A stretch of 64,000 bases of DNA from positions 71,486,001 through 71,550,000 of the forward strand of contig NW_024704744.1 in NCBI RefSeq assembly GCF_018977255.1. The letters run 5' to 3'. The notes beneath the pieces were generated by a model. The model saw only the letters and a list, made by a program, of their open reading frames with translations, was not told where the DNA came from and made no database searches. How positions within the stretch are numbered: position 1 is the stretch's first letter; each line of letters opens with the position of its first letter. Made by a program: the position numbers and the translations under genes. Shown piece by piece: positions 39,257-63,567 of this stretch. The DNA comes from Callorhinchus milii (lineage: Eukaryota).

Positions 39257-39551
39257 GATAATGTTGAGAGAGTGATTGTCAGAACTACAAAACATAAAAA
39301 ATGATCAATCTCCTGCACTATCGCATTGAGCAGTATTTAAATATTGAAATGAAGGATAATGTTGAGAGAGTGATTGTCAGAACTACAAAACATAAAAAAT
39401 GATCAATCTCCTGCACTATCGCATTGAGCAGTATTTAAATATTGAAATGAAGGATAATGTTGAGAGAGTGATTGTCAGAACTACAAAACATAAAAAATGA
39501 TCAATCTCCTGCACCATCGCATTGAGCATTTATTTAAATATTGAAATGAGG
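39257..39551 (+). repeat. Tandem repeat, 98-bp unit x3
   Basis: Units start at 39257, 39355 and 39453 (gataatgttgagagagtgattgtcagaac...). The first two appear identical; the third has a few changes. Confidence 0.97.
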
Positions 39552-40029: not shown

Positions 40030-40591
40030 GGGTTCTGGCGAGATGTTGGGCAAGTTTTCTTACTCCACATAACTCTGTTTACATAACATAACATGCAGGA
40101 GTAGGCCATTTGGCCCTTCGAGCCTGCCTCGCCATTCAATCATGGCTGATCTTCTAATCTAACTCTAACCCTGCCTTATCCCCATATCCCTTAATCCCTT
40201 TTGCAATAAGAAATATATCTATCTCAGTCTTGAATATGTTCAAGGACTGAGCGTCAACAGCCCTTTGAGGTAGCGAGTTCCATACATTCACCACCCTAGT
40301 AATACATGGGACCTGGTTGTTAGTCGATTGGTAGATTGCTTTTCCGAGAGCAATAATTCCTTTATATAAAAAAATGATAATTTGTCATTCAATCCATGAC
40401 TGTTTGTAGGACACTGCTGTGCACAATTGGCTGCCTTGGGCGAACAGTCCCAAATTATTATTATTTTTTCTTGAGGGATTATTATCAGGCGTGTGGAGTA
40501 AGGAAACTTGCCCAAGGTTTTGTCCTGCCAGGAATCAAACCCAGCTCTCTCGCTTGTGAGGCGAGTGCTCTAACCACTGGGCTACAGGACT
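40030..40591. mobile_element. Inverted SINE pair (+ copy about 40030-40440, interrupted by CR1; - copy about 40445-40591)
   Basis: gggcaagttttcttactccaca (about 40048) versus tgtggagtaaggaaacttgccc (about 40492). Confidence 0.8.
40081..40297 (-). mobile_element. 5'-truncated CR1 3' end, same family as 52178-55115, inserted into a SINE
   Basis: Near-identical to about 52178-52408 (gtaggccatt...cccttcgagcctgcc...ttccatacattcaccaccct). Confidence 0.9.
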
Positions 40592-43500
40592 TTACAATCT
40601 TAAGCACTTGCATAACAGTAAGTGTTAAATGGTGAAAAACGACACTTGGATTTGAACAATTAGCTTTTACAGTTGTGAAAATGTGAGAATATTGTCTTCC
40701 TCCTATAGTCTATTATTACCTTTAGCTCAAATGATGGTTGATCCCTTGCTAGGTCACAGATTCTGCATTCAAGTCCCAAATTGGTGCTTGAGTTGCACAC
40801 AGGCTGACACAGCAGTGCAGTGTGGGGAAGGCATTGTCATAAATACCGTACTTCAGATGAGAAATTAAATTGAGGTTTCACACTCTTTTGCTGTTCCCGA
40901 GGATTTATTCAATTTTCACTCTTGCTTTTGCTTACACTGTATGGAAAGCACTGCACAATAATAATCCTTGTACTTGGTATAGCGCCTTTCATATTGGGAG
41001 GACATCTCAAAGCACTTAACAGGACATACTGTAAAGCACAATATCTGAATTTTGTGAGAGAACACAATGGCTAATTCGTGTACAGCAAAGTCCATTTAGG
41101 TTACTGACTTTTATTTAACAATGTCAGTTGAACAGCTCTTGCCATTTGATGGGGTTGGTAAGATTGGTTCCTTCGGCCTAATATCAGCTGAGAGCTCATA
41201 ACTAGAAGACTTCTCAAAATATATTAAACTGGAATTGTGTGAAAGATTGACATAATGTATTTTGGATTAAAACCTGTGCCATCTCTTGATATCTTATAAA
41301 TGCTTAGTTTTTTTTTAATATTTCTCTATGGTGCAATTGCTATTTTTCCTCCTTGCCCCCCCACCAGAAGATGTGAGGAAGTGAGCTGGCAGTTGGTCAA
41401 AAGTATTCAAGCTGCAATTTCCTATAGACTACGGGAGGGAGAGGATCAAACTCAATGTACCGTTTATGTTCTTGAACATTTTTTCTCTCCTTGCGTCCGC
41501 TGGTCATTTGTTGACCAAAGACAGCCGGACGTCTTGCTTAGTGCCTTTCCATTTTCCTCCTCTTTCTCTTCTCCCAGCCTTGTTTAGCCTCTAGTTTCTT
41601 TAGTTTTGCAGAAATAGATTGGGAGCCTTTCATGTAGCATTGGGTTGCACCATTCCACGATGTCTTACATTGAACGTGTATATGTCTGTGTGCCTGTGCA
41701 CGCATACATTGGTAAAACTCTGCACTTCCAACTGGTGGAACACTGCTCAATGGACCGGGAATGTGTATCTTGGCTCCAGGCATGAAGGACGGTGGCAGTC
41801 CTCTTGCACATTTTAGGCTTAGTTGTGTTCTCACTGGGAAGCTTGCAGGGAATCCCTGATGCTTTCTAGCAAGGATGCAGCCCTGCGCTTATCGGATGTC
41901 TAATGACCAACTAGTGAGTATCCTAGGGAGGGGTGGGAAGTGAGGAGTTCTCATTCCTGAGCTGAGGCTGGGGGTTGGGTAGGATTCCAAGGTTCTCTTA
42001 ATCGCTGAATGCTCAGATGTCTTTGTCTGCAAGACTGGAGGAGCAAACCGGGGGCGGGGATTTTCCCCCTCCCATTCAGCTGATGCTCCTGTTAGCCCTG
42101 AAAGCTAAAAATCTTAGCTAAAAAGACAAGCAGTGGGAAGCTGCAGTTTTAAACTCCAGCAGTACCCAATACGCACTGTGGTCCCTAAGCCTTGGCTATT
42201 GCCATCCTTTGCCTATAGTTTCTGGGAATGTGGCACGAAGCACGCTCCTACAAGGAGATGATGTGTACTCCGTTCCAGATCAGTGGACATTTCCTTGCGT
42301 GCATGGAACATTCAACATTCAACTTAGATAATCTTAAGTATGGTAATGAGTTTCTGTTTGTCGAGCCACGGAAAGGCAGATCACTCTATTCTCACCTTGT
42401 AGGAAATGATGGCTCAGTCCCACATGCATAGAACAATGCATTTTCGTCAGTAATTGAATTGAAAAATGATTATGTAACTTTGCAATAACTACTTCCTCTT
42501 GAGCTCAACCCCTGCAAAATGCAAACGCTAAAATTGTTTATGCAGAATACAAAGTCTCTCTTTCTGCCCAAACTTGTATCTATGTAGCAAATGCACCATT
42601 TCTACTAATCTGGTCCTTAATAATAATCCTTAGGTTTGGTATAGTGCCTTATCATGTTGAGACATCTCAAAGCGAAATGTGGCAGCCGATTGCACACAGC
42701 GAAGTCCCATCGACAGCAACAGAGCGAGCAATTTTATTTGGGAGATTATCGGCCAGGACACCAAGAGACAAAAAATGTCCTTCTCTTTTCGAATTGTTCT
42801 TTTCCTGCGTTTGCTTCAAATGCCACACACTTATGCAGTGCAGTCACTTTACAGTATATCTTGTGAAGCAATTTGAAACATCCTCTCAACTTGAACGGTG
42901 CTAAATCGGATGCAAGGATTATTATTTCCCAACCTGCCCTCCAGTACCTTGCCTGAGTAGCTATTCTGTGTTTGAATGCTCCAAGTCGAGTACTGGCCAA
43001 ATTTGACTTTGAGAGCTGATATAGTATAAATTTACATTTATATAGTGGCTTTCACATCAGGAGGACATCTCAAGGTAGCCCAACATGTGTATCCTTCTTG
43101 CAGGTCTTTTCAAGGCAGGCAGGCATGTTGAGCTAGAATGTGTTGATCTGCAGCTTCATAAACCTTTGACAATATGGTTAGATAATGGCATCGTGGAGCC
43201 CTTTTATAGGATGAATATCAGTGGATATAATGCACCGTGGAACTGTGTGCAAACGGGGACAACTTGTCATGAGAAATTTACACAGAATTTTTTTTAGAGT
43301 CACTCTGGGTCCTGGTATTTGCGTCTTTGACTTTCATTGAAGTGTTTGAGAGCCGGACTGATCAGCCACTTCAGGCTGATTGTTGGCGGTTGTTTGTCGC
43401 ACGAAGAGGCTACTTGTAGTTTAAATTTCAATGTATTTGTACATCTATTTTAAAACAGCGAGTTGATTTAGTGTCTGATTACAGGGCTTGCGCAAAATGA

Positions 43501-44082
43501 AAGCGTTGCAGTGTGTGGATCTTTATATATAATATTCACATTTGTATCGTACTTAAATATACACATTCGTAACTTTTTTAACCAAAAGCCGCATAGACTT
43601 GTTTCCTTTGACCCATGCGTGTGGTTCTGTCTTACTTCACCATCTGCGTGCTGCCTTTTTAACTTGATGATCATTCCTCTGAAGATGGAGAAATTAGAAC
43701 AGGACTAAAATTGAGAAGCAAGGGAGGGAAGCTGGAACTAGACTATGAAATCGGATTTTTCTTTCCCGCTTAATAGTAAGCGGGTAAATGTCGCATCTCT
43801 AGAACACTTTTTTTTTAAACATTGAATGAGTGCAAACTGGTCTGCACAGTCTCTTTTGTGGCTTTGACTTGGGTGGCAGCCGGGCAGGGGCCAACACTTC
43901 CTGTTACCAAGAGAGGCTTCAGGTGGTCAATTGATGGAGTGGGTCTGGTAGTCTTCAGAGTTCTTGTTTTGTTTTGTTCCACGCTTGCTTTTTTTCAACA
44001 CAGACCGTGTGGTCGGTGTCTGCTCTTTTCCAGCTATGTTGCGACAGTATGGCTGCAGTGTACAGAATTATATTCTTTGAGT

Positions 44083-44266
44083 AGTCCTGTAGCTCAGTGG
44101 TTAGAGCGCTCGCCTCGCAAGCGAGAGACCTGGGTTTGATTCCTGCAGGGCGAAATGTTGGGCAAGTTTCCTTACTCCACACGCCTCTGTTTACCCTGCA
44201 GTAAGTAGGAATTTGGCAGATCGCTTTTCTGGGGGTAATAATTCCTTCATAAAAAAACAATAATAA
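44083..44266 (+). mobile_element. tRNA-derived SINE 5' half (A and B boxes)
   Basis: agtcctgtagctcagtggttagagcg...gggtttgattcc...gggcaagtttccttactccacac. Confidence 0.88.
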
Positions 44267-44772
44267 AGGCTGCAGATAATCCAGAACTCTGCAGCCCGTG
44301 TCCTCTCCCGCACTGGGCTCCGTGACCCTATCACCCCCATCCTCGCCCCACTCCATTGGATTCCCATCACATAGGGGATACAGTTCAAGATCCTGGTCCT
44401 CACCTTCAAAGCCTTCCATGGTCTTGCTCGCCCTTATCTCTGTGACCTCCTAAACCCCTACCACCCTACTTGCTCCCTCAGCTCAGCGGGCTCTGGCCTG
44501 CTTCACGTCCCCCCACTCACTCGCCCCACTATTGGCGGGTGGGCCTTCAGCCACTCTGCCCCCGCCCTCTGGAACTCCATCCTGCAGTCCCTCTGCCTTG
44601 CCCCTTCCCTTGCCTCCTTCCAAGACCCATCTCAAGACCCTCCTCTTCAACCGTGTTTTTGATCACCCACCTTTCCCCCCCCCCCCCCGCCCTCCACCCT
44701 TCCCGATCCCTGACTGTCCAACGTATGTCCTCCCGATGTGAAAGGCGCTATACAAATGTAATTTTGTTGTTA
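44267..44772 (+). mobile_element. L2 3' fragment fused directly to a SINE 5' half
   Basis: High similarity to 22818-23335. Confidence 0.88.
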
Positions 44773-45334
44773 TATGGTGTAATGCACAATGTAATATAAT
44801 CTATCCGATTTTGATCCCTTAAATTGTATTCCAGCTTTCTTTGTACTAGACCTTGGGTTACCTGCTTCTTCACGCAGAACTATAAAAAGTCTAGGACAAA
44901 GGAAAGGTTAGCTGCAGCTTTAAAATTAATGAGCTGGTGTAATTTATCAAGACACTCGAAACTACTGTTGAGCTTGTCTCATCCATTGGAATAATTTCTG
45001 TATTTGCATATCTTCAGGTTTGTTGTACCTTTATGGTGTTTACTTCCAGATAATATGATATGCTTATTTCATTCTGCATTTTTTATGTCAATAAAACTCC
45101 GGGGGAGTTTTGATGACACAAACCGTATGAATTGATGCCCAAAACACCATATAAATTCGGCAGCATACAATAGCAGCTATTGGTGTTTTTGCTATGGCAT
45201 CGATTTGCACTTTTCTATTTTAAATGCCGGTAGAATGAATCAATTCAGTATCCACACAAAAAAAATCCTTTACAAGTTCCAAAGGACTGCTTACAATGGG
45301 CTGAGGTTAAGTTCTGAGATAAGAATCATATCGA

Positions 45335-45619
45335 GTCGGTAGCTAATAGCTGTTTATTTCGCCTCATAGATCTGGGTTCAATTCCCGGGCAAAGAGAAAC
45401 CTTGGGCAAGTTTCCTTAGTCCACATGCCTGATAATCCCTCAAGAAACCAAAACAATAATAATTTGGTCACTCAATTCACAACACTGCTGTGCACAATTG
45501 GCTGCCGCATTTCGCCCACAAAAAATATACGGTCAATTCACTTTACAATATATTCTGTGAAGCGCTTTGAGACGTTGTGAAGACGTGATAAGGCGCTGTA
45601 TCAAATCAAGGATTATTAA
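45335..45619 (+). mobile_element. tRNA/Deu SINE
   Basis: B box ggttcaattcc, core and tail. Confidence 0.85.
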
Positions 45620-46297
45620 TGGCTGCAAGTCACAGCAACGTGAGGGGTGGCTGTGCTGAGGAGATGCTTGTGGATTTAAATCCCAATCCCAGTTTGAGGA
45701 GGCTTGCAAGAGATGGTCACTGATTCTTCCATCTAGTGCTGAGACAAGTGGCGTGACCTGACCTTGGGTGATTGATTAAAACAGGGGATGAAAATGTACT
45801 TGATACAATTGCAATAGTTATTGGAAAAACTAGGGAAGCTGGAAATCTAGAATCCAAATGAAAAATGCTGGGACTTGATGGCACAGCTAGACAGTGGAGC
45901 TTAGTTCACCTATCTTTAGGTGCTGATTGTTTCCTTTTTTAAAACTATTTGCAGCAACGTATTTGGACACGCAGGCTACCTGGTACTGCTGGCCTTATAA
46001 ACCAATGTCTACAGTGGTGTAAGGCTCACCAGACTTGCTTACCCAATACATGATTAGCTAGCCTGATCATGGTCTGTTTGTAAATCCTATAATAAAAGGC
46101 TCGATTAAAGTGTTACTTTCTGATCGATGCAACTGAAGAGTTCTGCATTAAACTTTTCCCAGATTTTTAAGATCGACAACCATCTCCCTTGCCAGATATA
46201 AGGTTCAAATATCAAAATGAATGCCTTCATGAGTACCTACAGTAATTGCAGAATAAAAATGTGCGTTGTGCTGATGGAGCTTATTTCCGTTGTTTAG

Positions 46298-46416
46298 GAA
46301 CATGCTGATGACCGGTACAAGACCTCGCCTTCCCTTGTGGTCCATGTCAGGGGTCTCTGCGATGGTGTCGTTGAAGCAGATTTAGTGGAGTCTGTCGAGA
46401 GGTTTGGACCCATAAG
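46298..46416 (+). CDS. hnRNP L-family gene (HNRNPL/HNRNPLL-like) exon 2, RRM1 start (EHADDRYKTSPSLVVHVRGLCDGVVEADLVESVERFGPIS)
   Basis: tgtttag| acceptor, AG|gtaagt donor, 119 nt. Confidence 0.93.
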
Positions 46417-46639
46417 GTAAGTGAGTCACTTGTGAATTGTTGCTTATCTGAGTTGCTGGTTTTGGGTCAGTGAGGTGTCGGCTGCAATTTGTTGGATTTT
46501 TTCTAATGCTGATTCTTGATGGTAACCTAATAACCTTATAAGATCACAAGATTGTTTGGGGTGAAGAATGCACCCAATGTCATCCCTCCAGAATACCACG
46601 CTGCTATTTCTATCCCCCACCCCCATCACAACATCAAGC

Positions 46640-47040
46640 TACTTTTTAAACTAGTCCAGCATCCTCGCTTCAACCACCCTTTGTTCCAGTCATTAATTGC
46701 CCTCTGGGTAAAGAAAAACTTCATGGTATCTGTCTTAAAGCTGCCTTTGCAACTCTAATCTCAATGGATTGTTCTGGGTTTAAAATGTACACCTCTGAGG
46801 TCCCCTCTGACTCTTCTCTCAAGACTGAAGATCCCTACTTTTCTAGTTGTTGCTCATTCCTTGAACACTGGGGATCATCCTTGGTGCTCTCCTCTACCTC
46901 TAGGCCCTGGACAGCCCCCTTATGTTACAGTGACCAGGGCTGTACACAGTACTCTGTGTGGTCTGACCAGAACACTGTACAACCTGAGTGACATTTGGAG
47001 ATATAAACAGCGATTTAGCAATGTAGCCCAGCAGCCAGCT
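46640..47040 (-). mobile_element. Old CR1 fragment
   Basis: ccagtcattaattgccctctgggtaaagaaaaac and cagtactctgtgtggtctgaccag resemble the CR1 ORF2 end. Confidence 0.6.
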
Positions 47041-48942
47041 GGCTGTATTTATGGGCATATAACTGAGCCAATGTCTCAGTTGGACCCATCCAGTGAGATT
47101 TCCCTGTGGTATAATGGGTGGTGAGCACCCCATGTTATAGATCAGCATAGAATAACCTCATGCTGTTCTCCAGCTCAATGCAGGCTACAAACCAGGCTAC
47201 AAATATATCCACCCAATTGGTCTGTGTGGGATACATGTTTTGCTGAACTTAATAGTTCTTCTCTTGGGTGAATAGGATCTCTGCATGTGAGGTTTGTAGG
47301 TTTATTCAAATGTTGTCTGTAGAAAACTTAATCCACCTTGAAATGATCAATTTTTCAGCAAGATAATGGAGTGTGGTTTGCTATAAAGAAGGCACCCTAT
47401 CCTGCAGTATCAGCCAGTAAATACCAATGCCACATCTGCTTAATAGTGTTGCATTGCAAGTGGGAATCTATTCATATTCACTACGCTATGATAGGTCAGT
47501 AAATCAGCCATATTCTGTATGGAATAGAAACGAAAATTGTCAAATCTTAAAAAAAAAGACTATCCTCGTGCACCATATCCGAACAATCTGCTGGGAGTTG
47601 CAGCTGAACTGCTTCTGTGGTTTGAGATAAGGGTTAAACTATTCGAACTTCAGTTTCCCAGTTTGATGATCCTTTAACTCTTGTGGCCCCATAAACCATT
47701 ACAGACTTCAATCTGCAGCTGCAGTATCAGATATTTTGGTGTAAAACACTCTTTACTTGCAAAGCATAGATAGGTGGAAATCCAGAAAAGCTCAAACAAG
47801 TGGATATAAAATATTCTATTCAAAAACGGAAAGGAGTTTCTCCAGGTGTCCAGGCCAACAATTTCTTCTCCCTTCTCTCCCCACCTCCACCCAATAAGAT
47901 TGGTCATTCACTTCATGGCTGTTTGTGGGACGTTAACGGGAGAATATTGATGTGTGTAAATGTACTGCCTCGTTCAACTATAAATACAGTGGCTACACTC
48001 CACAATAAATCCTGTAAAATACTTTGAGGCATTTCAATGCGATGAGGTACCCCATCAATTGCAAGTATTTTAAATAATAGTATTCAAATTTGCCAAATTG
48101 ATTATAAGAGTCACAGTTTACCCAAAGCTGTGACAACTGACCTGATGGTTTAAGCTGATTCCCTTGTAGGGTTTCATGCTTGTTGCATCAGGTACTGGTC
48201 CAAATAATTTAACCCACAACAGCAACTTGCATTTATGTAGTGCCCCTCATGCAGGGTAGCGTCTCAGAACTCTCAACGGGTAGGAGCCTAATGCCGAGCC
48301 AGGAGGGAGGTGGTGACAGGAAACACGGTCGAATAAACTAGTAGTATGTTCTTGTAACACAGAAATGCAAACTGACATCTATACTGTAACGTGTAATTAA
48401 AATTACAATTTAAGGCTCTGATTAATTTATTAAACATCACTTCTTGCTGTCTATAGAAATTATTCCTTTCACAAGATAAAGATTGCTATACTGCTATTTA
48501 ACAATTGTGGTTGGATAAAACACTGCAATGGTTTCCCCAGTTTTGCAGGATTCGGTTCTATTTTTGGGTCATTATTTGGACTTTTATTTTAAATTACAAA
48601 TCGGGCTCTTCCTCTTTCATATATTTTGGGCCGTTAAACCTACATACAAAGTCTAAACAAGTACAAAGCATGACCATTATCTCTGATTATTTTTGGAAGA
48701 CACTTCCTTTTAATATGAAACCGGCTCTCTTTTGTTATAGTCATCTTCAACCAGAAGCTGCAAAGAATTTGGCTTGCTCCGTTCAACAAAAACTTGTTAA
48801 ATGGCTGGCGGGGGCAGAATGAGGAAGAGGCTACAGTCCAAACTTAACTCTACATAATTGTGCAAATGTATTGCTAAATACTGTTACTTATTCCAAAGAA
48901 ATGTTTAGATCCAAGTGGTTATAACTATTGTTTTTGTTGTAG

Positions 48943-49180
48943 CTATGTGATGATGTTGCCAAACAAACGACAAGCACTGGTAGAGTTTGAAGATTTGGAT
49001 AGCTCCCAGAGCTGCGTTACCTATTCAAAACGTCGGGTTATCAACGTCTCGGGATTTCCTGCGTTTTTTAACTTCTCCACCAGCCAGAGGATCACTCGCC
49101 CCGGGGGTGCCGAAGACCCCAAGAACGTCAACAACGTCCTCTTTTTAGCCATTCAGAATCCACTCTATCCAATTACCACG
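48943..49180 (+). CDS. hnRNP L-family exon 3 (YVMMLPNKRQALVEFED...IQNPLYPITT)
   Basis: 238 nt, canonical AG/GT, phase-consistent. Confidence 0.95.
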
Positions 49181-51704
49181 GTATGTTCATTCACGGTGAA
49201 TAGTTCTACGTTTGCCAAACTTGTGTGCTGGTTTCGCTTGTGAACTGCGTGGTTTGGACCCAATCGTACATTGTCTCTGAGGCCACATTGTGAAGTGAAA
49301 CTCGAACGGCTGATTATACCAGAAAATATGCCCCCTTTTCCAGCTGTAGAATGAGTTTGAAGCGGGGAACTGGATTTATACTTCCAGAGCTTGTTATGGA
49401 CTAGCTCTGCCTGTCTGCTCAGTGCTCAGTCACTTGTGTTAGGTTTTTAAATATTGTTGAAAGTGGTGTTTTGAGGCCATCAAAAAATTGTTAAAGACGG
49501 TTTGTGAACAGGCCTGAATTTTTTTGTGTGTGTTGCCTGCATTTCTACTCCAGTGTTGTAAATCAACACCTGGTGAAACCACCTTCTTGCAGCTGGCCTC
49601 CAACTGCACTATATTGTGACCACTCAACTCATCCAGTTTAAACTGTATTATCAGTATGTTGAACAAGCTAAACTAAGCTTAACCAAGTGTTGTCAAAGTT
49701 TGCTTTTATTTATACGATGATGGTAAGGATTCAACTCCTATGGCAATCATGATCGGGCATTTCCAGATCACGTAGCAGAAGTTTTATTTGCTTCAGAGCT
49801 TGTGTACAGGTACAGAATCTTTGCACAGTTTTATATTTTCTAATATTTTAACCATGATGAGTTCCTAGATACTCGATTTCACGCTACAAAAGCTCGCCTC
49901 GTTATACCAGTAAGTGGAGTAGAACTTATCCATGCGTTATAGATTCAGACCAATATTACTGCTCAATGCTGCTGTTCTGGTGCAGCAACGTTCTTTCGTA
50001 ATCATGTGCTGTGCAAGCTGCACGAGCTGTTAGTACCTTTTATAGCCCTGGCTCTTGAGCGAGATGTTGTGTGTGCCCATCTATGAAGGGGAATTGTCAA
50101 CTTATGGAAGAGCATTGAGATGTAAACTAGTAAAACCTAACATTTATTAAATTACATTTTAAGCATCTTTAAGAAGGGCGGTCATTTCTGAAACATTGGA
50201 AAAATGCCTTTTAAATGACTTAATGGTATTTAATTTATATTTGTAAAAGAGCATATGGTTCTATCTCAGGCTTACGATGCATTCAGAAACTGCAAACTTC
50301 TGCATTTCCGAGCATCTTCTTGATACCCTTTCCACAGATATTTCTATTTTGGTTCAGTAATTCTTTAATTAATTCTGTGGTTCCTGGAGTATTCAGAATA
50401 TGGGTAAAACTGTTATTTGCCTGTTTAAATTCAGTTTTAACTAAAGAGTTCATTGAAATCTACAACCTTTTCCTGTGGCGGATTCCAAATGAAAATGTTG
50501 CTTCATCATTGGAAAACGTTATGATTGAGAGTTTTTTTTAAAAACAAGTTAAGCAAATGCTTAACTCTGAATTAACTATACAATATGTCCAAGAACAGTT
50601 TGCATTTATATAGCATGAAGGGTGCTACATAAATGCAACTTGTTGTCCTTCCTGCAGAGTAGCACCTCAGAGCACTTATCAGCGACGGAGCTTGATGCCA
50701 AGCCAGAAAGAGAGGGGAGGTACTGTCGGAGTGTCTTTGCCCGCTACTGAACTGAGCACAGACCCTCCTTTAATTGAGAACAAGATGCTGTCAATTTAAT
50801 ACTTGCAAAACAAATTGAGCGTTTTGGGCTGGAAACATCCGAAAGAGATGCCGAGCATTTTAAAAAAAAGTCTACTGTACAAGTGCAATTCACAGCTGTG
50901 TTCCTGCAGCTTTCTTGGTTGATATTTAGAGCATCTTTAAGAAGGGTGGGCACATCTCAAATGCCTTTTAAGTGACTTGATGGAGTTAAAAATGTGGCAT
51001 TTGTTATAAACACAATTGGGGTTGATGTAGCGGGTTGGAACAGATCTGCATGTTGCAGAGTTTGCATTTTGTTGACCTTGGCAGGGAACAGGCTGTGGTA
51101 TAGCTACGTCAGCTTCATCTCGTCTTTTTCTTGCTCGAACCTGTTGTGCGCAGCCGGCCACCTCCGCTGAGGAAATAGGGACATGTTTCGATATGAATGC
51201 GCTGACTTGCCTTTCTTTCACGCTTATAAGGGATAGTGACGACAGCAGGTTCTGTTTGAGGCTGAGGTGCAGGGACCTGCAAGAGGGAGAATTTTTAGAG
51301 CCAATGGTGCAGTCGCTGGACTGTACAGTTGCTTGTATAGATTGTAAAATTGTGTTCTTCCTCTTCATACACTGTGCCTCTCCCTGCACGTGGCGCTAAT
51401 AATAATTATTTTGTACAATTGCGTTGGCACCTTTCATGGATGGGGCCTGTTTTCAGGCTGCAGTCCGGTAGAGATTACATTTTAAATTTGTTGTGAGTAT
51501 CTTGGCTTCACTCAATTTATTAAAAAAAAATCCACTGTATAAAGATGTGTAAGCTGATGTGGCTTCACTTGGGATTCTTGCTAGTCATCAAGAAATGACG
51601 CAGCCCACCTGTACAATTTTTGCTCTGTGTCTGTACCACCTGATCTCATTGTTTTTTTAAAAAAAACGTGCACCTGTCACATTAAACTTTCTGTCTCATT
51701 TCAG

Positions 51705-51790
51705 GATGTTTTGTACACTATCTGCAACACATGTGGTCCAGTCCTGCGCATTGTAATATTCAAGAAGAATGGTGTGCAAGCAATGGTTGA
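51705..51790 (+). CDS. hnRNP L-family exon 4 (DVLYTICNTCGPVLRIVIFKKNGVQAMVE)
   Basis: 86 nt; ends at the U12 donor ATATCCTTT. Confidence 0.95.
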
Positions 51791-54700
51791 ATATCCTTTT
51801 TCGTATACTTAAAGAGCCACACAGTTCACACAAAGAGAAGCATTGCGTTCCTTTTGGTGGTGTATTGCAGTGCTCAGTCCTGCAGAGTGCTGAGCCACAC
51901 GCTCACATTGTCGAGACATCTCAAAGCGCTTCACAAGATTACCGTCACACACCCTGAACCTGTGCCCTCTTGTCCTCCATCCTTGATGTGTATTAGGTAT
52001 TTGGGTGTTTATGCTTTCGATCCCATTTACCATTTTATATAAGGTCTCATCTGGCACTTCTCTTTTCTGCTTTGTAATATTTGAAGGACAACCTTGCAAT
52101 TTTGTGAGGCAGCTTCAGACGAATATCAAGGGAATGCCTGAACTTCCTGCTTTTTTCTTAGTGTAGCCTTTGATATTAACATAACATGTAGGAGCAGCAG
52201 TAGGCCATTCGGCCCTTCGAGCCTGCCCCGCCATTCAATCATGGCTGATCTTCTGATCTAACTCCAGCTAATAACCTAACCCTGCCTTATCCCCATATCC
52301 CTTAATCCCTTTTGCAATAAGAAATCTATCTATCTCAGTCTTGAATATGTTTAAGGACTGAACGTCAACAGCCCTTTGGGGTAGTGAGTTCCATACATTC
52401 ACCACCCTTTGAGTGAAGAAGTTCTTCCTCAACTCAGTGCAAAAGGGCTGTCCTCTGATTTTAAGGTTGTGACCTCTGGTTTTAGTTTCTCCAACCAGGG
52501 GAAACAATCTCCCACTATCTACTCTATCATGCCCTTTGATGATCTTATAGGTCTCTATGAGATCCCCTCTAATTCTTCTATATTCTAGAGAATTGGTCAG
52601 CCTATCCTCGTAACTCATCCCCTTCATCCCTGGTACTAACCTAGTAAATCTATGCTGCACCCCCTCCAAGGCAAGTACATCCTTCCTTAAATAAGGAGAC
52701 CAAAACTGCACACAGTATTCCAGGTGTGGTCTCACCAGGGCCCTATACAGTTGCAGCAAGACTTCCCTACTCTTATACTCTAATCCTTTCATAATGAATG
52801 CTAACATACCGTTCGCCTTCCTAATTGCTGCTGCACCTGCAGACTAACTTTCTGTGATTGGTGTACAAGGACACCCAAGTCCCTCTGGACACTAACACAT
52901 TCCAATCTCTCCCCTTCTAAAAAATAACCCGCTCTACTGTTTTTGCTACCTAGGTGGATGACTTTGCACTTCCCTACATTATACTTCATCTGCCACCTAC
53001 CTGCCCAATCACCTAACCTATCTATGTCTCGCTGCATTTTTTAATGTCATCCTCTGTGTTGACACTTCCTCCTAGTTTTGTGTCATCCGCAAATTTAGAT
53101 ATATTAACTTCGATGTCCTCATCTAGATCGTTGATGTAGATGGTAAATAGCTGAGGCCCAAGGACTGATCCTTGTGGCACTCCACTAGTCACATCCCGCC
53201 AATCTGAAAAGGACCCGTTTATCCCTACTCTTTGTTTCCTACCCGTTAACCATTCCCCAATCCACGTTAATATGCTCCCCCCAATTCCATGGGCCCTTAT
53301 CTTTTGGACTAACCTTTTATGCGGCACCTTATCGAATGCCTTCTGGAAGTCCAAATAGACCACATCCACTGATTCACCCTTATCTAGTTTACTGGAAATA
53401 TCCTCAAAAAACTCATCAAACATGACTACCCTTTTGTAAAGCCATGTTGACTTGGCCTAATTATATTGTGCTCCCCTAAATACCGCATCCTTAATCAATG
53501 ATTCTAAAATGTTTCCTATCACTGATGTGAGACTAACTGACCTATAGTTCCCCATCTTTTCCTTTCCACCTTTTTTAAATAGTGCTGTGACATTTGCGAT
53601 CTTCCAATCCATGGGGACTGTTCCAGAATCCAAGGAATTTTGGAAGATCAGACATAAGGCCTCCACTATCTCATAAGCTACCTCTTTTAAAACCCTGGGA
53701 TGCAAGCCATCCGGACCAGGGGATTTGTCACTTTTTAGTGCTAACAGTTTCCCTAGCACCAATTCTCTACTAATGAAAATTTCCCTAAGTTGCTCCCTGT
53801 CCTTATCCCCTTGGTGCATCTCTATTGTTGGCAGACTTGTTGTGTCTTCTAGGGTGAAGACAGATGCAAAGTACCCATTTAGGGACTCTGCCATGTCCTT
53901 ATCCCCCATTACAACTTCTCCCGTCTCTGACTGAAGTGGACCTACATTTACCCTCACTAGCCTATTCCTCTTAATATATTTGTAAAAACTTTTACAATCA
54001 GACTTAATGTTCCTAGCTAGCTTACCCTCATACTCCTTTTTCTCGCTCTTAATGAGTTTTTTAGTTTTATTTTGCTGGTTTCTAAAACTCTCCCAATCTT
54101 CAGATTTGCTGCTTTTCTTGGCAGTTTTATAAGCCTTTTCTTTTAATTTGATGCTTTCCCTCACTGCTCTAGTTAGCCACGGATGAATTGCTTTCCCTGT
54201 GGTACTCTTATTCCGCAAGGGAATATGTGACCGCTGAGAATTTTGCACTACATCCTTAAATATTTGCCACTGTTGGTCTACATTTTTACCTCTTAATCTT
54301 ATTCTCCAGTCTATTTTACCTAAATCTTTCCTCATACCTACAAAATTAGCCCTATTTAAATTCAGAACACTTGCCTCGGATTTAACTATATCCCTTTCTA
54401 ACTTAATGCAGAATTCAATCGTATTGTGATCACTGTGCCCTAGAGGATTCTTAATACCTACACTGCCAACTAGCCCTGTTTCGTTACACAAAACAAGGTC
54501 TAGGATGGCCTGTCCCCTAGTTGGTTCCTCGGCATGCTGCTCTAGAAAGTTATCTCTCATACACTCAATGAACTCTTCTTCTGACCTACTTTTGCTGATT
54601 TGGTTTTCCCAATCTGTGGAGATTGAAATCACCCACTATTATCGCTTTACCTTTCCTACATGCTCCACTGATTTCTCGATTGATACCGTGTGCTATATTG

Positions 54701-55313
54701 TGATCACTATTTGGGGGTCTATAAACCACTCCCATTAATATTTTCTGCCCTTTTTTTTATTTCCACCCATATTGTCTCGACCACCTGGTCATCAGATTTC
54801 AGATCCTTCCTCTCCACTGCTTTTATTTCATCCCTAATTAACAGGGCTACTCCCACCTCTTTTCCCACAGTGCCTATCTTTCCTGTAAACTGAGAACCCT
54901 GGAATATTTAACTCCCATCCTAGATCTTCTTGTAACCATATTTCAGTGATGGCTACTAGATCGTACCCATATGTGTCCATCTGTGCTTTTAATTCATCAG
55001 TTTTATTCCGAATGCTTCGCGCATTCAGATATAACATTTTTAATTTCCTACCATTTCCTCTACTCTCTGATTCCTTATCTACTTTGCCAAGCTTCTTACC
55101 CCTAGTTAACATATTCCTATTGGAATATTAGGAACATATGATTTCTTTCTTGCCCACTCCCCTCCCCCCTGAAATTATATCTGGGATTGAACAGAGTTTC
55201 TGTTTAACATTCGTGACTTTCAGTGTTCTGAGCGTTATTAGTATTGTTAATTCACCCAAATGCTGTGCCTGTAATACTTGAATAACGTCTCTTGTTTCCT
55301 TAACCATTCTCAC
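51791..55313 (+). other. U12-type (minor spliceosome) AT-AC intron
   Basis: 5' site ATATCCTTTT at 51791; branch site TTCCTTAAC at 55296-55304; ends CAC at 55313. Splicing restores GA|A TTT GAC (EFD). Confidence 0.93.
52178..55115 (-). mobile_element. CR1-clade LINE, nearly complete ORF2 (APE endonuclease plus RT), frameshifted, ORF1 absent
   Basis: ORF pieces: YLNARSIRNK...VAITEIW (endonuclease); KSPGPDGLHPRVLKE; [33 protein letters not shown] (RT); VRPHLEYCVQFWSP; then 3' UTR with a short tandem tail. Confidence 0.95.
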
Positions 55314-55410
55314 ATTTGACTCAGTTCAAAGTGCCCAGAAGGCGAAGGCTTCTCTGAACGGTGCAGATATTTATTCTGGTTGCTGCACACTAAAAATTGA
55401 ATATGCTAAG
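55314..55410 (+). CDS. hnRNP L-family exon 5 (FDSVQSAQKAKASLNGADIYSGCCTLKIEYAK)
   Basis: 97 nt, AC acceptor, AAG|gtaagt donor. Confidence 0.95.
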
Positions 55411-55506
55411 GTAAGTGTGTTAACCTGCTCCAGGGACCTTTGTCATTGCCAATTTAAGCAATTTCACACTTCTAAATGAGCTTTTGTTTTTCAATCCCAC
55501 AACCAG

Positions 55507-55579
55507 CCTACTCGACTGAATGTCTTCAAGAATAATAGCGAATCGTGGGACTACACTAATCCTAACTTAACCAGAGGAG
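55507..55579 (+). CDS. hnRNP L-family exon 6 (PTRLNVFKNNSESWDYTNPNLTRG)
   Basis: 73 nt, ccag| acceptor, G|gtacag donor. Confidence 0.93.
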
Positions 55580-56384
55580 GTACAGTACACCCTTCCTATT
55601 TGTGGTTGCTCTCTCTTCCCCCCACCCCCGCCCCCCCACCACATACTTATGTGCAGATGAAGAATCCTGTGTCCCATGTTAGACCCCCAGCAACAATCTC
55701 TTTCTGTTTTAACAGTCTGGGGCAGGATAAGCAGCAGATAATGTATTGATGCAGTAATGAAATGGAAATCTGTCCAGATCTGACACTTGATAGGATGCCT
55801 CTCAAAAGTTGCAATAGTCTGTACTGTGTGAATAGACGCTTTCATTTGTGTTGTGTGCACATGAGGCAACTTTTTTTTAAACCGTGCTATTTTATCTTTT
55901 ATACAATCAGCAACTACTTGGCATTCATTATCTAGCTTTGCTTTGTGACAAATGTAATTAAGCAATCTCTGCAACAAATTGTCAACATGAGGGTAGCAGG
56001 TTGAATCTGCTGGGTGATGATAACGATGCTGTGGTTGGGGGATGTGTGTCACTGATCTAGATAGAACATTAGCCAATGGTCTTTTTCTTTCTCTGTGCAA
56101 CTCCCTTCTGCCCGTGATTCTGAGGCCTCCTGCTGGGAACTGCACCTGTGGTTATATTGGGTGACCATAAGATCAGACTCCTTTGTGATTGCCCATCAAA
56201 AGTACTGTTCTTGATGCACAGTACTTTTCTGAACTATTGTAACCAGTGATAAATTCCTTGATGGCTTTTATATTTGTACAGCCATTTGCTGGTAGTCTAA
56301 CATCTGTTCCAAAGAGAACGTTTTGAAGGTTTTAAACTGCATACGTTGAGCTGTGGTGTACTCTGCTGGATGTTGACTAGCAAC

Positions 56385-56830
56385 ACTGTACAAGCACTGT
56401 AGTTGCAGCTCACCTACATCAACTACATGCAAACCAGGCTCCTGCACAGAAAGTTGCAGCTTTCAAAGCAACACTCAGTACTGCAGAACATTCTCACTGT
56501 TAGATGGAAAACAAAGAACCAAGACTTCAATTACAGAAATATTTTCAAAATCTTCAAAAAGCTGCAGACGCACATTATCTTCAGTGTGGAAAGACTATTG
56601 ATTTGTTTGCCCCCCACACTACTGGAGCACGGCATTGATTGGCAAGGACAGGCATACCAGCAAGAGGGAGCACCACAGAGAAGAGGGAAGCCAGGCAAAC
56701 TAACCACTTCATGCACCAGCGCCAACGATTGCCTGCATAAACCAGTAACAACTGACAACAGCGCAGCCTTCCGACTCTTACTCAGCTCACCCAGACTGCA
56801 CGCAAACACATCCTCAGGAAACTGATCAGG
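56385..56830 (+). promoter_or_regulatory. CA-rich intronic cluster (candidate hnRNP L-binding splicing enhancer)
   Basis: Island of CA/ACA/CAC-rich sequence on the sense strand within an otherwise T-rich intron 6, upstream of a candidate poison exon. Confidence 0.5.
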
Positions 56831-57182
56831 AAGGACACTTTTCATTCATCGGTGCAAGGCGAATATGTTGCAAGTCGCAATTTAAGACTGTAAAATGAAA
56901 CTCTATTTGAAATGTTTTGTAAAATTAAATGAGATTATTCTAAACCTAAAATGCAGCCACTGGGTGCAAGAGTCCACTTATGATGACTGCTGCAAACCAA
57001 TTCCCTTGTGGAGATTTGTACAACTGTGTTCTTAAGCCTGCAGTTAAAATTGTTTTTGGACAAACCAGACAACTGGTGAGGTGCATGGTCGATGGATTGA
57101 ATGCTTTTTGAGATCCACCGGTAACGGTTGTGTTTTTTTGTTGGCTTTTCTACGAAAGTTGCTCTTGCAATAGCTGAATTTG

Positions 57183-57452
57183 GCAGGGCGAAGCCTTAAG
57201 CAAGTTTCCTTACTCCACACATCTATTACCTGGCAGTAAGTAAGCACTCAGTTGTTAGTCGATTGGCAGATTGCTTTTCCGGGGGTAATAATCCTTCAAA
57301 AAAAATAATTTGGTCACTCAATCCACGACTGTGGCTGCTGCGTTTCACCCACAAAATATACAGTCAATTCACCTTACTGTATATTCTGTGAAGTGCTTTG
57401 AGATGTCTCAACGATGTGATAAGGCGCTATATCAAATGCAAGTATTATAATA
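57183..57452 (+). mobile_element. SINE (head truncated)
   Basis: gcaagtttccttactccacac...gcgctatatcaaatgcaag. Confidence 0.85.
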
Positions 57453-59224
57453 TAGTGAATCCTTGGTCAGTCCCATATTTTAAACAGTGAAATATACTCC
57501 CTGTGCACTTAACAATATGCATGACTTAAGGTCTAAATACTGTAATATCAGAAGTTTTGCAGCAGTTCTCGTAATGTGCTTTTGTTACTGAGATTTAAAT
57601 TTACAAAAACCTTGTTTTTTAAACAAGACACGACCTAGAAATTGTACAATGTAAATGTATTTGTTTTAATAAGTTTATTTTAAAAAAGAAATCCAGAAAT
57701 TGCTTAAGCTGATCAGATCAGTACAATGAAATTTGTTATGTGAATGTTATTCAGAAAACAAAATAACTTGAGGACAATTGGGTGATCTGCTATTACTAGA
57801 TTGATGGGAGCTCCTGTGGATCTTGTTGGATATCACCATGGACTGCTGAGTTCACCCGCAAAATAGTCTTGCCACTTTGTCTGTCCTGCAAAGGAATTTG
57901 AAGTGATCAGGTGCGATAACAAATGGGAGGATTATTATATTATAAATGCATCAATGGTCTGGTCCTCAGCCATACAGAGTAAAATGGTGTGACTCCCTGA
58001 GTTAGCTGAAATAGTGGGCAGGGGAGAGAGAGAGAAGTTGCCATTTGTCCGTTGGACCTAAGGCGAGAATCTGGTAAGAGTTCTGCTCCTTGTATGTTAA
58101 ATGTTGCTACCCACGGCCAGTCACGGATGATCGACTCTGATCTCCTTGACCTTTGGCACTTTCTCAAGCTATGAGGAGGGTTGGGTGTACCAAGAGCAGC
58201 ATTACCCTGATCCAGTGAGGGACACTAGGACTATGAACAGGCAAGGGTGTAAGGCAAGAAGTGGATAACTAATATTGGTCTGGACAGGGGAGAGTAATGT
58301 GTGCTCTTGAGATTGACCTATGTTACTGACTTCTTAACCTTTACTTTGGAGGATGTAATAATTGAGTCGGTATTTCATAAATTCATGGACAGTGGGGATG
58401 GAAAAAGTAGTGTTTTCAGTATTTGGTACAAAATAATGATGGGGTGGGAGAAACAATGTGCTTCAACAACTTTTCTCCCTTCCCTACCCTCACGCAAATG
58501 CATTCTTTCTATCAGAAAAGATTCAAATTGAAACTAACTCAGAATTAGCCCAGTGCATATTTTTTCTCAGCTTCAGAAAAACAATTTAGATGGATTTGAT
58601 GTGTCCATTTTTAAAAACTGCGGTGGAGGGTGGACTGGTTAGAGAGGGAGGATAATTGATATACTTTTAATCTGTTTACTTTAGCTATGAACTGAAGGCA
58701 GTGTAATTATTTAAGTACCAATGTCCTCTGCATCGCTCCCATCCCACTACGTTCCCAATCTTAAACCACTTTATTGTGAGAAATTGTCTCATAAATGTGC
58801 ATTTCGTCTGTTGTCCAGAGTAATCCCCCATGTCTTGATAATTTGAAGATCTAAACTTCTCTTATTACCCTTAACAATTTCTGGATTTCAAGAAAAGCTA
58901 TGTTGTTTGATGCCCCCCCATAGCATTGATTGACCAATTCCATGTCTAAAAGGTGCTTTTGACATTAGATCTGAAAGATGACCGTTCTGTGCAATTTTTT
59001 TGCTACAGTTCTGAATGTTTGAACTATTCAGATTTTTATGTCGTTTTTATGTAACCAGTAGATTTTTTTTTAGTTTTGGTGAAGTTTAATCCTAACTTAT
59101 TGGAGTGTTTGGACTTGGTCAACCAACAATGTTCATGAGTGACCATCAATTAAAATGTTACATTTATAACTCTGTATGTTCATTTTCAAATCCTGTATTC
59201 ATTGATTGTAAAACTGTAATGCAG

Positions 59225-59314
59225 GGGCGAAGTATCTCGCTTTTGCTGAATCCTCCTGCAAGTTGTTAAGAAGGCCTCTTTGACACTGCTCTATGTTGCT
59301 GTTTGAAGCTTATG
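59225..59314 (+). other. Candidate poison (NMD) cassette exon 6A
   Basis: tgcag|GGGCGAAGTATC...TGTTTGAAGCTTATG|gtacaa; in-frame TGA at 59281-59283 when joined to exon 6; ends resemble the recalled human HNRNPL exon 6A. Confidence 0.62.
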
Positions 59315-59545
59315 GTACAAAACACCAGGTACTGTTTTTCAAAATTGTACTTTTTGCTCAACTGTTGACCAAATGTGCAATGCTGTATGATGTGTTGATG
59401 TATACGTGTAGCTTGTGTGGGGTTGGTGGGTTAAAGTAGTGGAGTAGAGAAAAATGGCTGCTGAATTTAAACATTTGTATAATTTTTACATAATGGAGGT
59501 GCACTATTTAAATTTCTCCTTTTCCCCTTCCCCCTCTGATTTCAG

Positions 59546-59617
59546 ATGAAGGGAGAATTTTCAGGCAGCCGGCACTTTTGGGAGATCATCCGTCAATATA
59601 CAGCGGTAACGGATATG
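59546..59617 (+). CDS. hnRNP L-family exon 7 (DEGRIFRQPALLGDHPSIYSGNGY)
   Basis: Polypyrimidine tract plus ttcag|, G|gtaagt donor, 72 nt; RQPxLLGDHP motif. Confidence 0.92.
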
Positions 59618-60398
59618 GTAAGTGTTCTTATAGCTAGATATGGAACTGCTTGTTCCAACTCTTGTTTTACTTCCAGTTCTTCTGACTGGCTCATGACTAA
59701 ACCATAACCTGTAAACATTGTGATCAGGAATGCTAAATATTAATAGCAAAATAAGTCTGGCTACTTCTGGAAAGTGATTCCAATCAATAGCTGTCGAGGC
59801 AACTCTCAAACTCTTGCATAGCTACTTGATCAACAGATAATGGGAATACAAGTGTTTTTGTCTTTTTTAAAAAAACAATGTATTGTGCTTTTTAAAGTAC
59901 AGACAACAATATTTTAGTTTGAGTTTTGGAATGAAGTGATCAGTATTTTTGGAATGAGATTCCTCTGGCTATTTTGGTGCCTTTGGAACTGTTTCCGGGA
60001 AATATTACTACTTTCAGTTTGGGAGAGAAATTTGGGAAAAGACTAAATATTCCATTATCAGCAACCCAGACAACCAAGGATAATATATAGAAATCTTGTT
60101 GCATTTTCATCCACATGTGTGGATGGCTGCAAGTCTCATGACCCTGGGAATTCTCCAAAGTTTTGGCATCACTGATCCATCATTATACTTTTTGCACGGA
60201 ACAACTCAGCTCATCCTATGTACCTTGTTTCTAAATTACCAGTGTTTTAATCCTCTTCTTGATTGATTTTTGCATTGCCTGATGCATTGCCCTGATGCAA
60301 CTGATCCATGATTTTTCCAGGTTGCTTAAATTTGTATGTGTGTGTGCGTGTTGCGTATGTTTGGATGTAAAAGGTAATAGAACAATGTCTTTGAACAG

Positions 60399-60634
60399 GC
60401 TATCCACACTCAGCGGGTAGCAGTCGGTCATTAGAACGCAGAATGGCACCTCGCCCATCCAATAGCAAGTCCTCAGTCATGCATCATTACCCTCCATCAC
60501 CACCACACATGGCATCGCAGCAGCATGGGTCTATGCGCTCCAGCAAAGTTCTAATGGTTTACGGACTTGTTCCGAACAAAATCAATTGTGACAAAATCTT
60601 CAACCTTCTCTGCTTGTATGGCAACGTTGAAAAG
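60399..60634 (+). CDS. hnRNP L-family exon 8 (linker plus RRM3 start, VLMVYGL...CLYGNVEK)
   Basis: aacag| acceptor, AAG|gtacgg donor, 236 nt. Confidence 0.9.
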
Positions 60635-60748
60635 GTACGGTTGGTATTTTCGGCGCAAATTGTGTTGGAGACATAGTGCAAACATCTCACAGTGATGTGT
60701 CGCATTAACCACTGCGAAATTTGTCTTTTTGGTTTACTACAATTAATT

Positions 60749-61104
60749 ATAATAATTGTTGCATTTGATATAGCGCCTTATCGCATCTTTGAGATGTCTC
60801 AAAGCGCTTCGCAGAGTATACTGTAAAGTGAATTGACTGTATATTTTGTTGGCAAAATGCGGCAGCCAATTGCGCATAGCAGTGTCCCACAAACAACCGT
60901 GGATTGAAGTGACTAATTTATTATTATTTAAGGAATTATTACCCTCGGAAAAGCGATCTGCCAATCGACTAACAACCGGGTTCCTACTTACTGCTAGGTA
61001 AACAGAGGCCTGTGGAGTAAGGAAACTTGCCCAACATCTCACCCTTGTGGGAATCGAACCCGGTTCTCTCACTGGCAAGGCGAGCGCTCTAACCATTGAG
61101 CTAC
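60749..61104 (-). mobile_element. Full-length tRNA/Deu SINE (long variant)
   Basis: Head, core and tail all present. Confidence 0.9.
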
Positions 61105-61467
61105 CTGTCGGACGAGTATATTGTGTGCGTTTTTTTAAATCTGAAATTGACCGGGTTCGACGGAGCAGTCACTGTTCCTTAATTTGAGAAATGTAGGAGG
61201 TGTCACCTTTCTAATCTAGTGTATTGTTCAGTAAGTGTTCTACCTTTTTGTTTAAATAACAAGAAAATAAAAACCTTACTAGTACAGTAGAGCCAGTCAT
61301 CTGAATTAATCATCTGAAAAGAACCTGGAAAAAGGGGAGGAAAGTGAAGTTGATGAACTGTTCAGAGCTGCCTGTTGAATTTATTATTATGTAGCTCTTC
61401 AGGATACCATTTTTTACCCTACATTGACCTTTGAGTCTCTCTGTTCATTGTAACCGGTTTACTTTAG

Positions 61468-61589
61468 GTCAAGTTCATGAAGAGCATGCCAGATGCTGCG
61501 ATGGTTGAAATGGGTGATGAATTTTCTGTGGAGCGGGCTATCACCCACCTCAATAATGTCCATATGTTTGGAAAGCCGCTCAGCTTGTG
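61468..61589 (+). CDS. hnRNP L-family exon 9 (VKFMKSMPDAAMVEMGDEFSVERAITHLNN...)
   Basis: 122 nt, canonical AG/GT. Confidence 0.94.
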
Positions 61590-61680
61590 GTAGGTGGCCA
61601 AGATTTCCACGTACGCTTAAAAAAAAGTTAACTACTTATGCTGTGGACATTTATAATTAAGGGTGTGTTCTTGTGTTTAG

Positions 61681-61882
61681 TGTCTCCAAACAGCACACAA
61701 TTATGCCGAGTCAGTCTTATGAACTGCAAGATGGCACCAATAGTTACAAGGACTTCACTGACTCCAGGAACAATCGCTTCTGCAACCCTGGACAGGCTTC
61801 CAAAAACAGGATCCAACCTCCTTCCAGCGTACTCCATTTCTTCAATGCTCCAATTGGAGTAACAGAGGAAACATTTCAACAG
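61681..61882 (+). CDS. hnRNP L-family exon 10 (VSKQHTIMPSQSYELQDG...TEETFQQ)
   Basis: 202 nt, canonical AG/GT. Confidence 0.95.
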
Positions 61883-62606
61883 GTAAGCTGTCTGAAAGCT
61901 AAAGTGGGCTGTAACCAATAGGTTAAAATTCCCAAGTAAATAATTGTGGGTGTTTCATACATCTTTTTCTTTTAAAAAAACGTTTCATGCCAAAACTTGG
62001 TCTATTCACTGTAAGGTCTATTTATGCTGGTTTTCTTTGTTAGTGTGAAAATCTCAATGTTACATGGCAAACAACACTTAGGCATGCGTACTGGAGCCTG
62101 TCTGACTGATCTACTTGGTTTTGGTATCCGCACCAGTTTAGTATAAATGTAGGCATTTTTGTACATTAACACCTTGGGATTCCCCAGCGCCTTGGAGTGT
62201 ACTCCCCACGTGAAAGGTGCCATACAAAGTTGTTTGGGAAACCTTGCTGGCAAAAAGTGGGTGTTGTGTTTGCCCTGCACTTGCCTGAATACCTGTGAAA
62301 CACTTTGAGACATTTCAATGTGATGAAATGCTTTCGTTAAAAAACAAAAGTATTCTTCACATCCTGTGAATTCAACTCGTCGCTGCGAATGAGATTTGTG
62401 GGTGACTGAAATAAATCCTGTTTCTTGCTCCAACACTATTGCTTAAAGGACACTCACTATTTGATACATTTTCATTATGGAGAGCCTAGGATCTGTCTAT
62501 TAGAATATTGCTTTTTTTATTCACTAAGAAGATCGTTTAATTGCTGTATGATTTTTTTGTATCTCTGTCCAGTTAAAGTGTAACATGTCTTTTGCCTTTC
62601 TCCTAG

Positions 62607-62664
62607 ATGTGTGAGGATTCCGATCTGAAGTCTTTTCTGACATACAAAACATTTTCTGGAAAAT
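62607..62664 (+). CDS. hnRNP L-family exon 11 (MCEDSDLKSFLTYKTFSGK)
   Basis: 58 nt, tcctag| acceptor, T|gtaagt donor. Confidence 0.88.
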
Positions 62665-63471
62665 GTAAGTAATGCGATGACGGTGAACAAACTGATTCAA
62701 AAGTGCTTTCAAAATCTTTAAGTTGTGATGAAACTAAGTTGTTAACTTGCTTATCTACTATGGTTAAAAGAAAAAAAAGGGAAAATATCATTTATGCCAG
62801 CTGTCTGACTTGTGGAAACCCATTATAATGCTTGAGAATATCCAACCCAGACAGTTCCACATATGTATACAACTTGCACATTGTGTGCTTATTTAAGATC
62901 TGTTATCATTCAATCAATGGCAAGTAGAAGTTAAAAGAAGTTTTTGTTGGGATATTGTAGTAGAAATTAAAATATCAAACTTGCCGATTCATTTATAAGT
63001 CATAGTAAATGGCACTTTGAAGTCGCTGGATCCTGCAAATTCTGAGATTGTGTGGTCACAGTCTATGGGACATGAAGGGTGTAGCTAGAACTTTAGGAGT
63101 GTAGAGTATGGAAGTATAGCCCAGCACTCAATGATCTGTAATGCTTCTGGTTCACTTGAATACATCAAACAGAATTTTCATTTGTTTTAGAGATTATTAA
63201 ATTTCCTTTGATCTGATTTTTGAATAGGTAGAAAACTGGACTCCAGATGGAGAAATAAACACTTTGTGGGCTAAGATTATCAGTTTGGATTGAAGTTTCT
63301 CTAAGACTGCTGTATAAAACCAATATAATATGATCGGTTTGAAATGAAATGCAGGTGATTCAGTGCTGAAATGATTGAGTTGACACCTGATTGAGCTTCT
63401 CTCAGAGAATATTTTTCCTTTTCCTGAGCGTGTAGATGATCTAATTTTTTAATGTTCTGTTCCCTTTTTAG

Positions 63472-63567
63472 CTGACCGGAGTTTATCGGGCTTGTTGGAA
63501 TGGCAGTCGAAAGATGAAGCTGTGGAGGCGCTGGCCATGCTGAATCACTACCAGATAAAAAATCCAA
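63472..63567 (+). CDS. hnRNP L-family exon 12 (SDRSLSGLLEWQSKDEAVEALAMLNHYQIKNP); last exon lies beyond the window
   Basis: 96 nt, canonical AG/GT, RRM4. Confidence 0.93.

Follow-up and report, generated by a model that had tools for sequence, protein, structure and literature searches.

Whether intron 6 of an hnRNP L-family gene in Callorhinchus milii hides a poison exon is the question raised by this locus, and with it come the questions of which family member is involved, how old the exon is and what use is made of it in RNA. The original prediction placed there a 90-nt segment bounded by AG and GT, with a stop that would send the mRNA to nonsense-mediated decay (NMD). We analyzed the window, meaning the whole 64,000-nucleotide stretch of DNA, together with contigs from 7 of 14 listed runs; runs X1 to X5 were treated as RNA because of the splice joints in their contigs, no RNA label or library type being on record. 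Our best explanation, which we regard as probable, is that the segment belongs to a 104-nt poison exon 6A of HNRNPLL, likely controlled by hnRNP L, and that its acceptor also feeds a likely 412-nt circle. The features on which this explanation is built are as follows.

46298 to 63567, plus strand: HNRNPLL exons 2 to 12 (1399-nt stop-free open reading frame, tblastn and tree)
55507 to 55579, plus strand: HNRNPLL exon 6 (RNA joints)
59180 to 59224, plus strand: acceptor region of exon 6A, conserved and pyrimidine-poor (pyrimidines at 9 of 20 positions, compared with 18 of 20 ahead of exon 7)
59225 to 59328, plus strand: exon 6A as used in RNA, 104 nt (X1 and X5 join donor 59328 to 59546; in X5 the acceptor receives the exon 8 donor)
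59225 to 59314, plus strand: ancestral extent of exon 6A, 90 nt (paralog alignments; no use of donor 59314 seen)
59546 to 59617, plus strand: HNRNPLL exon 7, part of the likely circle (RNA joints)
60399 to 60634, plus strand: HNRNPLL exon 8, part of the likely circle (back-splice of its donor to 59225 in X5; present once in the assembly)

The gene that hosts exon 6A is the HNRNPLL ortholog, and HNRNPL is ruled out. In a tree of 17 proteins with lamprey and hagfish as the root, the window gene and a skate protein cluster with HNRNPLL with a support of 100/100, and placement of the two in the HNRNPL clade is rejected with a p-AU of 4.35e-5 (the tested group was chosen after inspection of an earlier tree, and the same grouping appears in both trees). 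The downstream neighbor in the window is atlastin-2 (ATL2, 99%), and protein records for HNRNPLL and ATL2 come from contigs of equal length, and so apparently from common contigs, in skate, coelacanth and narwhal, the narwhal locus tags being consecutive. The true HNRNPL gene of the genome sits elsewhere, on G000 C577, adjoining a second, partial HNRNPL-type gene. The identification follows from the tree grouping, the AU rejection, the ATL2 neighbor and this separate location of HNRNPL; the family assignment of the original prediction thus stood, with HNRNPLL and not HNRNPL as the member. Exon 10 of the gene is identical to the Callorhinchus milii protein P0003. A third, shark-only hnRNP L paralog was also considered for the window gene and is ruled out by the tree and the neighbors.

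Several other observations were made on the family and on the surroundings of the gene. In the 17-protein tree a long stem branch (0.57) leads to bony-vertebrate HNRNPLL once the cartilaginous-fish copies have split off, and the latter are about equally similar to L (about 60%) and LL (about 59%). The second HNRNPL-type gene is divergent and lies in tandem with and upstream of HNRNPL (G000 C577, 7204-12485; L005, L006). Intron 4 of HNRNPLL (51791-55313) is a minor-spliceosome AT-AC intron with textbook-like donor and branch motifs, which we take to be of the minor-spliceosome type; a contig of X4 joins 51790 to 55314, and the UniRef model P0003 reads differently through this intron. Exon 13 lies just past the window end, and exon 1 was not found in an uninformative search of the window. 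A RasGEF neighbor gene, presumably SOS1-like, occupies 12544-29969 on the minus strand; its 5' half was not found in the window, nor was any long exon of it in the 110 kb downstream. The absence of both HNRNPLL exon 1 and the RasGEF 5' half would be explained if a scaffold piece were misoriented at the N gap at 36951 (region 30000-46297). A head-to-tail repeat of about 98 nt was spotted by eye at 39255-39500.

As predicted, AG precedes 59225 and GT follows 59314. These bounds alone are uninformative since intron 6, with 3966 nt, holds 544 YAG..GTR pairs spaced 50 to 200 nt apart. Such an abundance of exon-sized pairs is what one would cite for a chance segment without any role, a reading whose probability we put at practically nil, refuted as it is by homology in three paralogs and by RNA splicing at both ends. 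The reading frame behaves as had been claimed: in phase 1 after exon 6, exon 6A reads GAKYLAFAESSCKLLRRPL*, with TGA at 59281-59283, and the stop sits 831 nt upstream of the exon 12/13 junction, the last in the mRNA, the threshold for decay being more than 55 nt. The TGA is unaffected by whether the exon is taken as 104 nt or 90 nt. In its 104-nt form the exon starts 3645 nt past exon 6 and ends 217 nt ahead of exon 7.

We next compared intron 6 with its counterparts in the same genome. Of intron 6, nothing but the exon 6A segment aligns to the corresponding intron of HNRNPL in this genome (score 69), and none of 300 dinucleotide shuffles reaches this score (mean 31, maximum 44). When intron 6 was scanned in pieces, the best piece on exon 6A scored 76-80 against at most 39-40 for 113 others. 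The acceptor side (59180-59235) matches HNRNPL intron 6 with 79% identity over 58 nt and an E value of 8.5e-6. In HNRNPL, intron 6 carries an exon of 70 nt that is bounded by AG and GT and has a stop in frame; we call it 6A by gene, place and length. The tandem HNRNPL-type paralog carries a 103-nt exon 6A at G000 C577 6571-6673, also with an in-frame stop (phase 1 assumed, its exon 6 being off the contig). The window segment aligns to both paralog exons over the acceptor, the 5' end and a 3' motif, matching the 103-nt exon at 72 of 90 nt and the 70-nt exon at 48 of 90. Because the longer exon is the closer one, the alignments suggest that the 70-nt form derived from a longer exon through a 33-nt deletion.

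The segment is therefore an exon 6A homolog with an in-frame stop. All three hnRNP L-family genes identified in the genome contain it, which implies, by sequence comparison, that the element dates back at least to the HNRNPL/HNRNPLL duplication. An ancient homolog in the same intron was what the original prediction had proposed from resemblance to the mammalian exon; the alignments to the genome's own paralogs bear this out, but the published human HNRNPLL case is one of cross-regulation and not of autoregulation. A scan of metagenomes for the shared acceptor motif gave nine hits, none with an hnRNP L match.

RNA evidence confirms the exon and corrects its 3' end. Contigs that splice exon 6A to exon 7 come from X1 (depth 10.8) and X5 (depth 48.3), two of the seven runs, which belong to one study, P1. 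Both contigs are continuous across 59314 and leave at 59328 (joint 59325 to 59543, cut +3, GT..AG, 217 nt skipped). Acceptor 59225 and the reality of the exon thus held, whereas the predicted donor did not, and neither did a length divisible by 3, the spliced exon having 104 nt. Donor 59314 aligns with the donors of both paralogs, which retain a strong donor where it has decayed here: of 11 positions in the U1 consensus it fits 5, whereas donor 59328 fits 7. The proposed exon bounds also hold, 55579 being the last base of exon 6 and 59546 the first of exon 7; contigs of X1, X3 and X4 carry the skipping joint between the two. The predicted junctions 55579-59225 and 59314-59546 both went unobserved in the RNA contigs. 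Among the joints listed, exon 6 is joined to exon 6A in none of the four runs with contigs over exon 6, and contigs drop rare forms. Neither of the contigs of X1 and X5 that carry exon 6A enters it from exon 6; that of X1 runs on upstream into the intron, and X1 has no back-splice. X2 to X4 have no contig across exon 6A and are not counted as evidence, and X6 and X7, with no contig on 58880-59800, exon 7 included, are uninformative.

Two further observations concern intron 6 itself. Its 5' part is covered by contigs in all four runs (region 55645-59325; DNA carry-over is possible), and one contig of X1 still includes 1.5 kb of intron upstream of exon 6A although splicing at 59328 has taken place. 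Intron 6 may be slowly removed.

The same contigs, together with the weak ancestral donor and the unseen exon 6-6A joint, could also mean that the linear poison role is decaying and that exon 6A is now kept chiefly for back-splicing, as an acceptor, or because it ends a retained intron. This we find highly doubtful: the acceptor, the 3' motif, the in-frame stop and a CA-rich cluster upstream are all retained, and human HNRNPL exon 6A is, according to the available text of PMC10123112, almost undetectable unless NMD is blocked, so that absence of the linear form from contigs, which drop rare forms, is to be expected. We keep to exon 6A as a predicted poison exon of the linear mRNA.

The only use of the 6A acceptor observed in RNA is a back-splice. 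In X5, and in this one run of seven, the exon 8 donor at 60634 is joined to the 6A acceptor at 59225, both canonical splice sites. Ahead of 59223 the X5 contig has 27 loose letters, and these have a unique match at the end of exon 8, 60606-60632. A closed 412-nt loop of exons 6A, 7 and 8 predicts contigs with exactly the two lengths found in X5, 161 and 311 nt, and with the 30-nt overlaps by which each end of one meets the other. Since the 161-nt contig is continuous at the acceptor, no other entry into exon 6A is retained in X5. We conclude that the joint is likely to represent a 412-nt circular RNA of exons 6A, 7 and 8, whose longest predicted open reading frame, of 78 amino acids, spans the back-splice joint. 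The circle-specific contig has a depth of 48.3 against 58.6 for the shared exons 7-8, a weak hint that the circle is abundant in X5.

The same joint would arise from a linear repeat, whether from a tandem duplication in the animal sampled, from trans-splicing or from an artifact of reverse transcription, and contigs lack the power to separate a circle from a linear repeat; moreover, the joint comes from a single run of unrecorded library type. We nevertheless hold a linear repeat to be quite improbable. The assembly contains exon 8 and the 6A region once each, the joint falls exactly at both splice sites, which have only AG/G in common, the internal introns are spliced out, and an inverted repeat pair flanks the block. 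A linear repeat would also have a stop at 59267 and hence be a decay target, a poor fit to the depth. The circle remains the preferred reading of the joint. Full-text searches, judged by titles, abstract openings and selected passages, gave no report of a 6A-7-8 circle or of a cartilaginous-fish exon 6A, and unread supplements and circRNA databases may list one. HNRNPLL does not occur in 11 of the 20 supplement files that accompany PMC8355340, nor in 8 that accompany PMC8516421; a 6A-containing circle may be listed in the remaining files.

The flanks of the circle contain a candidate cis element, an inverted pair of repeat copies, and a CA-rich region lies further upstream.

56380 to 56879, plus strand: CA-rich cluster, candidate hnRNP L/LL binding region (CA count; binding putative)
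57200 to 57452, plus strand: SINE-like repeat copy, 5' arm of the inverted pair (repeat matches)
60748 to 61030, minus strand: inverted copy of the repeat, 3' arm of the pair, 113 nt past the exon 8 donor (78% over 283 nt, E 9e-64)
61047 to 61104: tRNA-like head of the 3' repeat copy (Rfam tRNA match)

Rfam gave six matches on the window, all tRNA-like, and the repeat was called a SINE because of its tRNA-like head and its copy number. Among the 23 inverted matches listed for HNRNPLL introns this pair is the best (236 bits), and its predicted duplex has an energy of -350 kcal/mol, against -88 +/- 7 for shuffled arms. Inside the arms, 6A has the first exon acceptor after the 5' arm and exon 8 the last donor before the 3' arm. 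Two of 158 placements of the same geometry in 174 kb, which overlap one another, reach the score of the pair; inverted pairs of at least 200 bits occur in 5 of 158, and direct matches are about as frequent. The pair is thus supportive of, but not proof for, a role as driver of the back-splice.

These frequencies bear directly on what the circle is for. An ordinary conserved poison exon whose circle is real, yet a functionless by-product of two SINE insertions, is a reading that we put slightly above even odds: pairs this strong occur in 1-3% of placements, the circle appears in one of seven runs, and the primers for mouse circ-Hnrnpll lie, on our own reading of them, in other exons, so conservation of the circle is unsupported. 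Only the depth of the circle contig in X5 speaks against it, and that as a weak hint of abundance. This reading is compatible with our best explanation, from which it differs on function only, and it is the likelier view of the circle's function. The more ambitious reading, in which two SINE insertions turned an ancient poison exon into a back-splice acceptor, so that an hnRNP L-activated 6A yields a stable 412-nt circle as a regulated second feedback arm, we consider rather unlikely. If it were true, much HNRNPLL pre-mRNA would end in a circle instead of a decay substrate and the circle would record hnRNP L activity.

The CA-rich cluster stands out by its CA content, with 71 CA per 500 nt against 35.1 +/- 6.8, the maximum of the window (none of 635 windows of that size is as high), and more modestly by ACAC/CACA, with 10 against 4.0 +/- 3.1 (34 of 635 as high, the top 5%); the segment was picked after the data had been viewed. 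It lies 2.3 kb from exon 6A, compared with 0.15-1.1 kb in the HNRNPL gene, and it does not align with the HNRNPL cluster (score 31, equal to background).

Under our best explanation, these elements would work together as follows. hnRNP L would bind the CA-rich cluster and activate the weak 6A acceptor; mRNA with exon 6 joined to 6A would carry the stop and enter NMD, and the degradation of this linear product may account for its being missing from contigs. The SINE arms could pair and bring the exon 8 donor to the 6A acceptor, giving an untranslated circle that would evade decay and accumulate. Both the decay route and the circle route would divert pre-mRNA from protein production. By analogy with humans, control of HNRNPLL exon 6A by hnRNP L is likely in Callorhinchus milii, and we infer, as the original prediction did, that the feedback circuit is still operating in the elephant-shark gene.

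Exon 6A is already known since 2009, when Rossbach et al. (PMID 19124611) reportedly described the human HNRNPLL poison exon 6a as cross-regulated by hnRNP L; the back-splice use is the new part, resting on one run. The presence of exon 6A in a cartilaginous fish extends a known circuit and is unsurprising. The circle is the more useful part: it would show a regulatory poison exon, itself conserved, at work as a back-splice acceptor, and both a cis element and a trans factor can be proposed as candidates.

In the accessible parts of PMC10123112 and PMC7764535, inclusion of human HNRNPLL exon 6a is promoted by hnRNP L and the product is degraded by NMD; from the coordinates given in that part of PMC10123112 we computed, for this exon at chr2:38805062-38805144 of hg19, a length of 83 nt and distances of 3910 nt from exon 6 and 387 nt to exon 7. 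The shark exon resembles it in lying in the orthologous gene, in the same intron and near exon 7, in its similar size and in its internal stop, and differs in its 104 nt, in a donor shifted 14 nt downstream and in the use of its acceptor for back-splicing. The autoregulatory exon 6A of human HNRNPL has 70 nt in the sections of PMC6547761 and PMC10123112 at hand. The HNRNPL gene of Callorhinchus milii likewise has a 70-nt exon with an upstream CA-rich cluster, and the window exon aligns with it, whereas the window gene is a paralog with a longer exon and a more distant CA cluster, a SINE lying between the two.

For the circle, comparison can be made with exonic circRNAs driven by SINEs, described for Alu pairs and, in the case of ciRS-7, for MIR pairs (PMC7371899, as far as accessible). 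A long inverted repeat pair in the flanking introns and a back-splice at canonical sites are common to both; here the repeat family is a chimaera one, the acceptor is that of a conserved poison exon and the pair is a candidate driver. A circHNRNPLL has been reported in mouse and cattle (PMC10932347, PMC7056934 and PMC7312917, in their available portions). The gene is the same, and the mouse primers, read by ourselves against P0072, fall in exon 7 with exon 2 or 5, thus including upstream exons, and not in 6A-7-8.

Finally, stop-carrying exons are enriched in mammalian circRNAs, for which an escape from NMD within circles was proposed, according to the part of PMC8355340 available. The chimaera case is alike in that an exon that would trigger NMD in the linear mRNA is predicted to persist in a circle. 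Compared with the exons treated in that part of PMC8355340, it differs in being a deeply conserved regulatory exon that itself supplies the back-splice site. The locus therefore offers a compact system for asking whether circularization replaces NMD as the off-route in splicing-factor feedback, an idea already present in general form in the same text.
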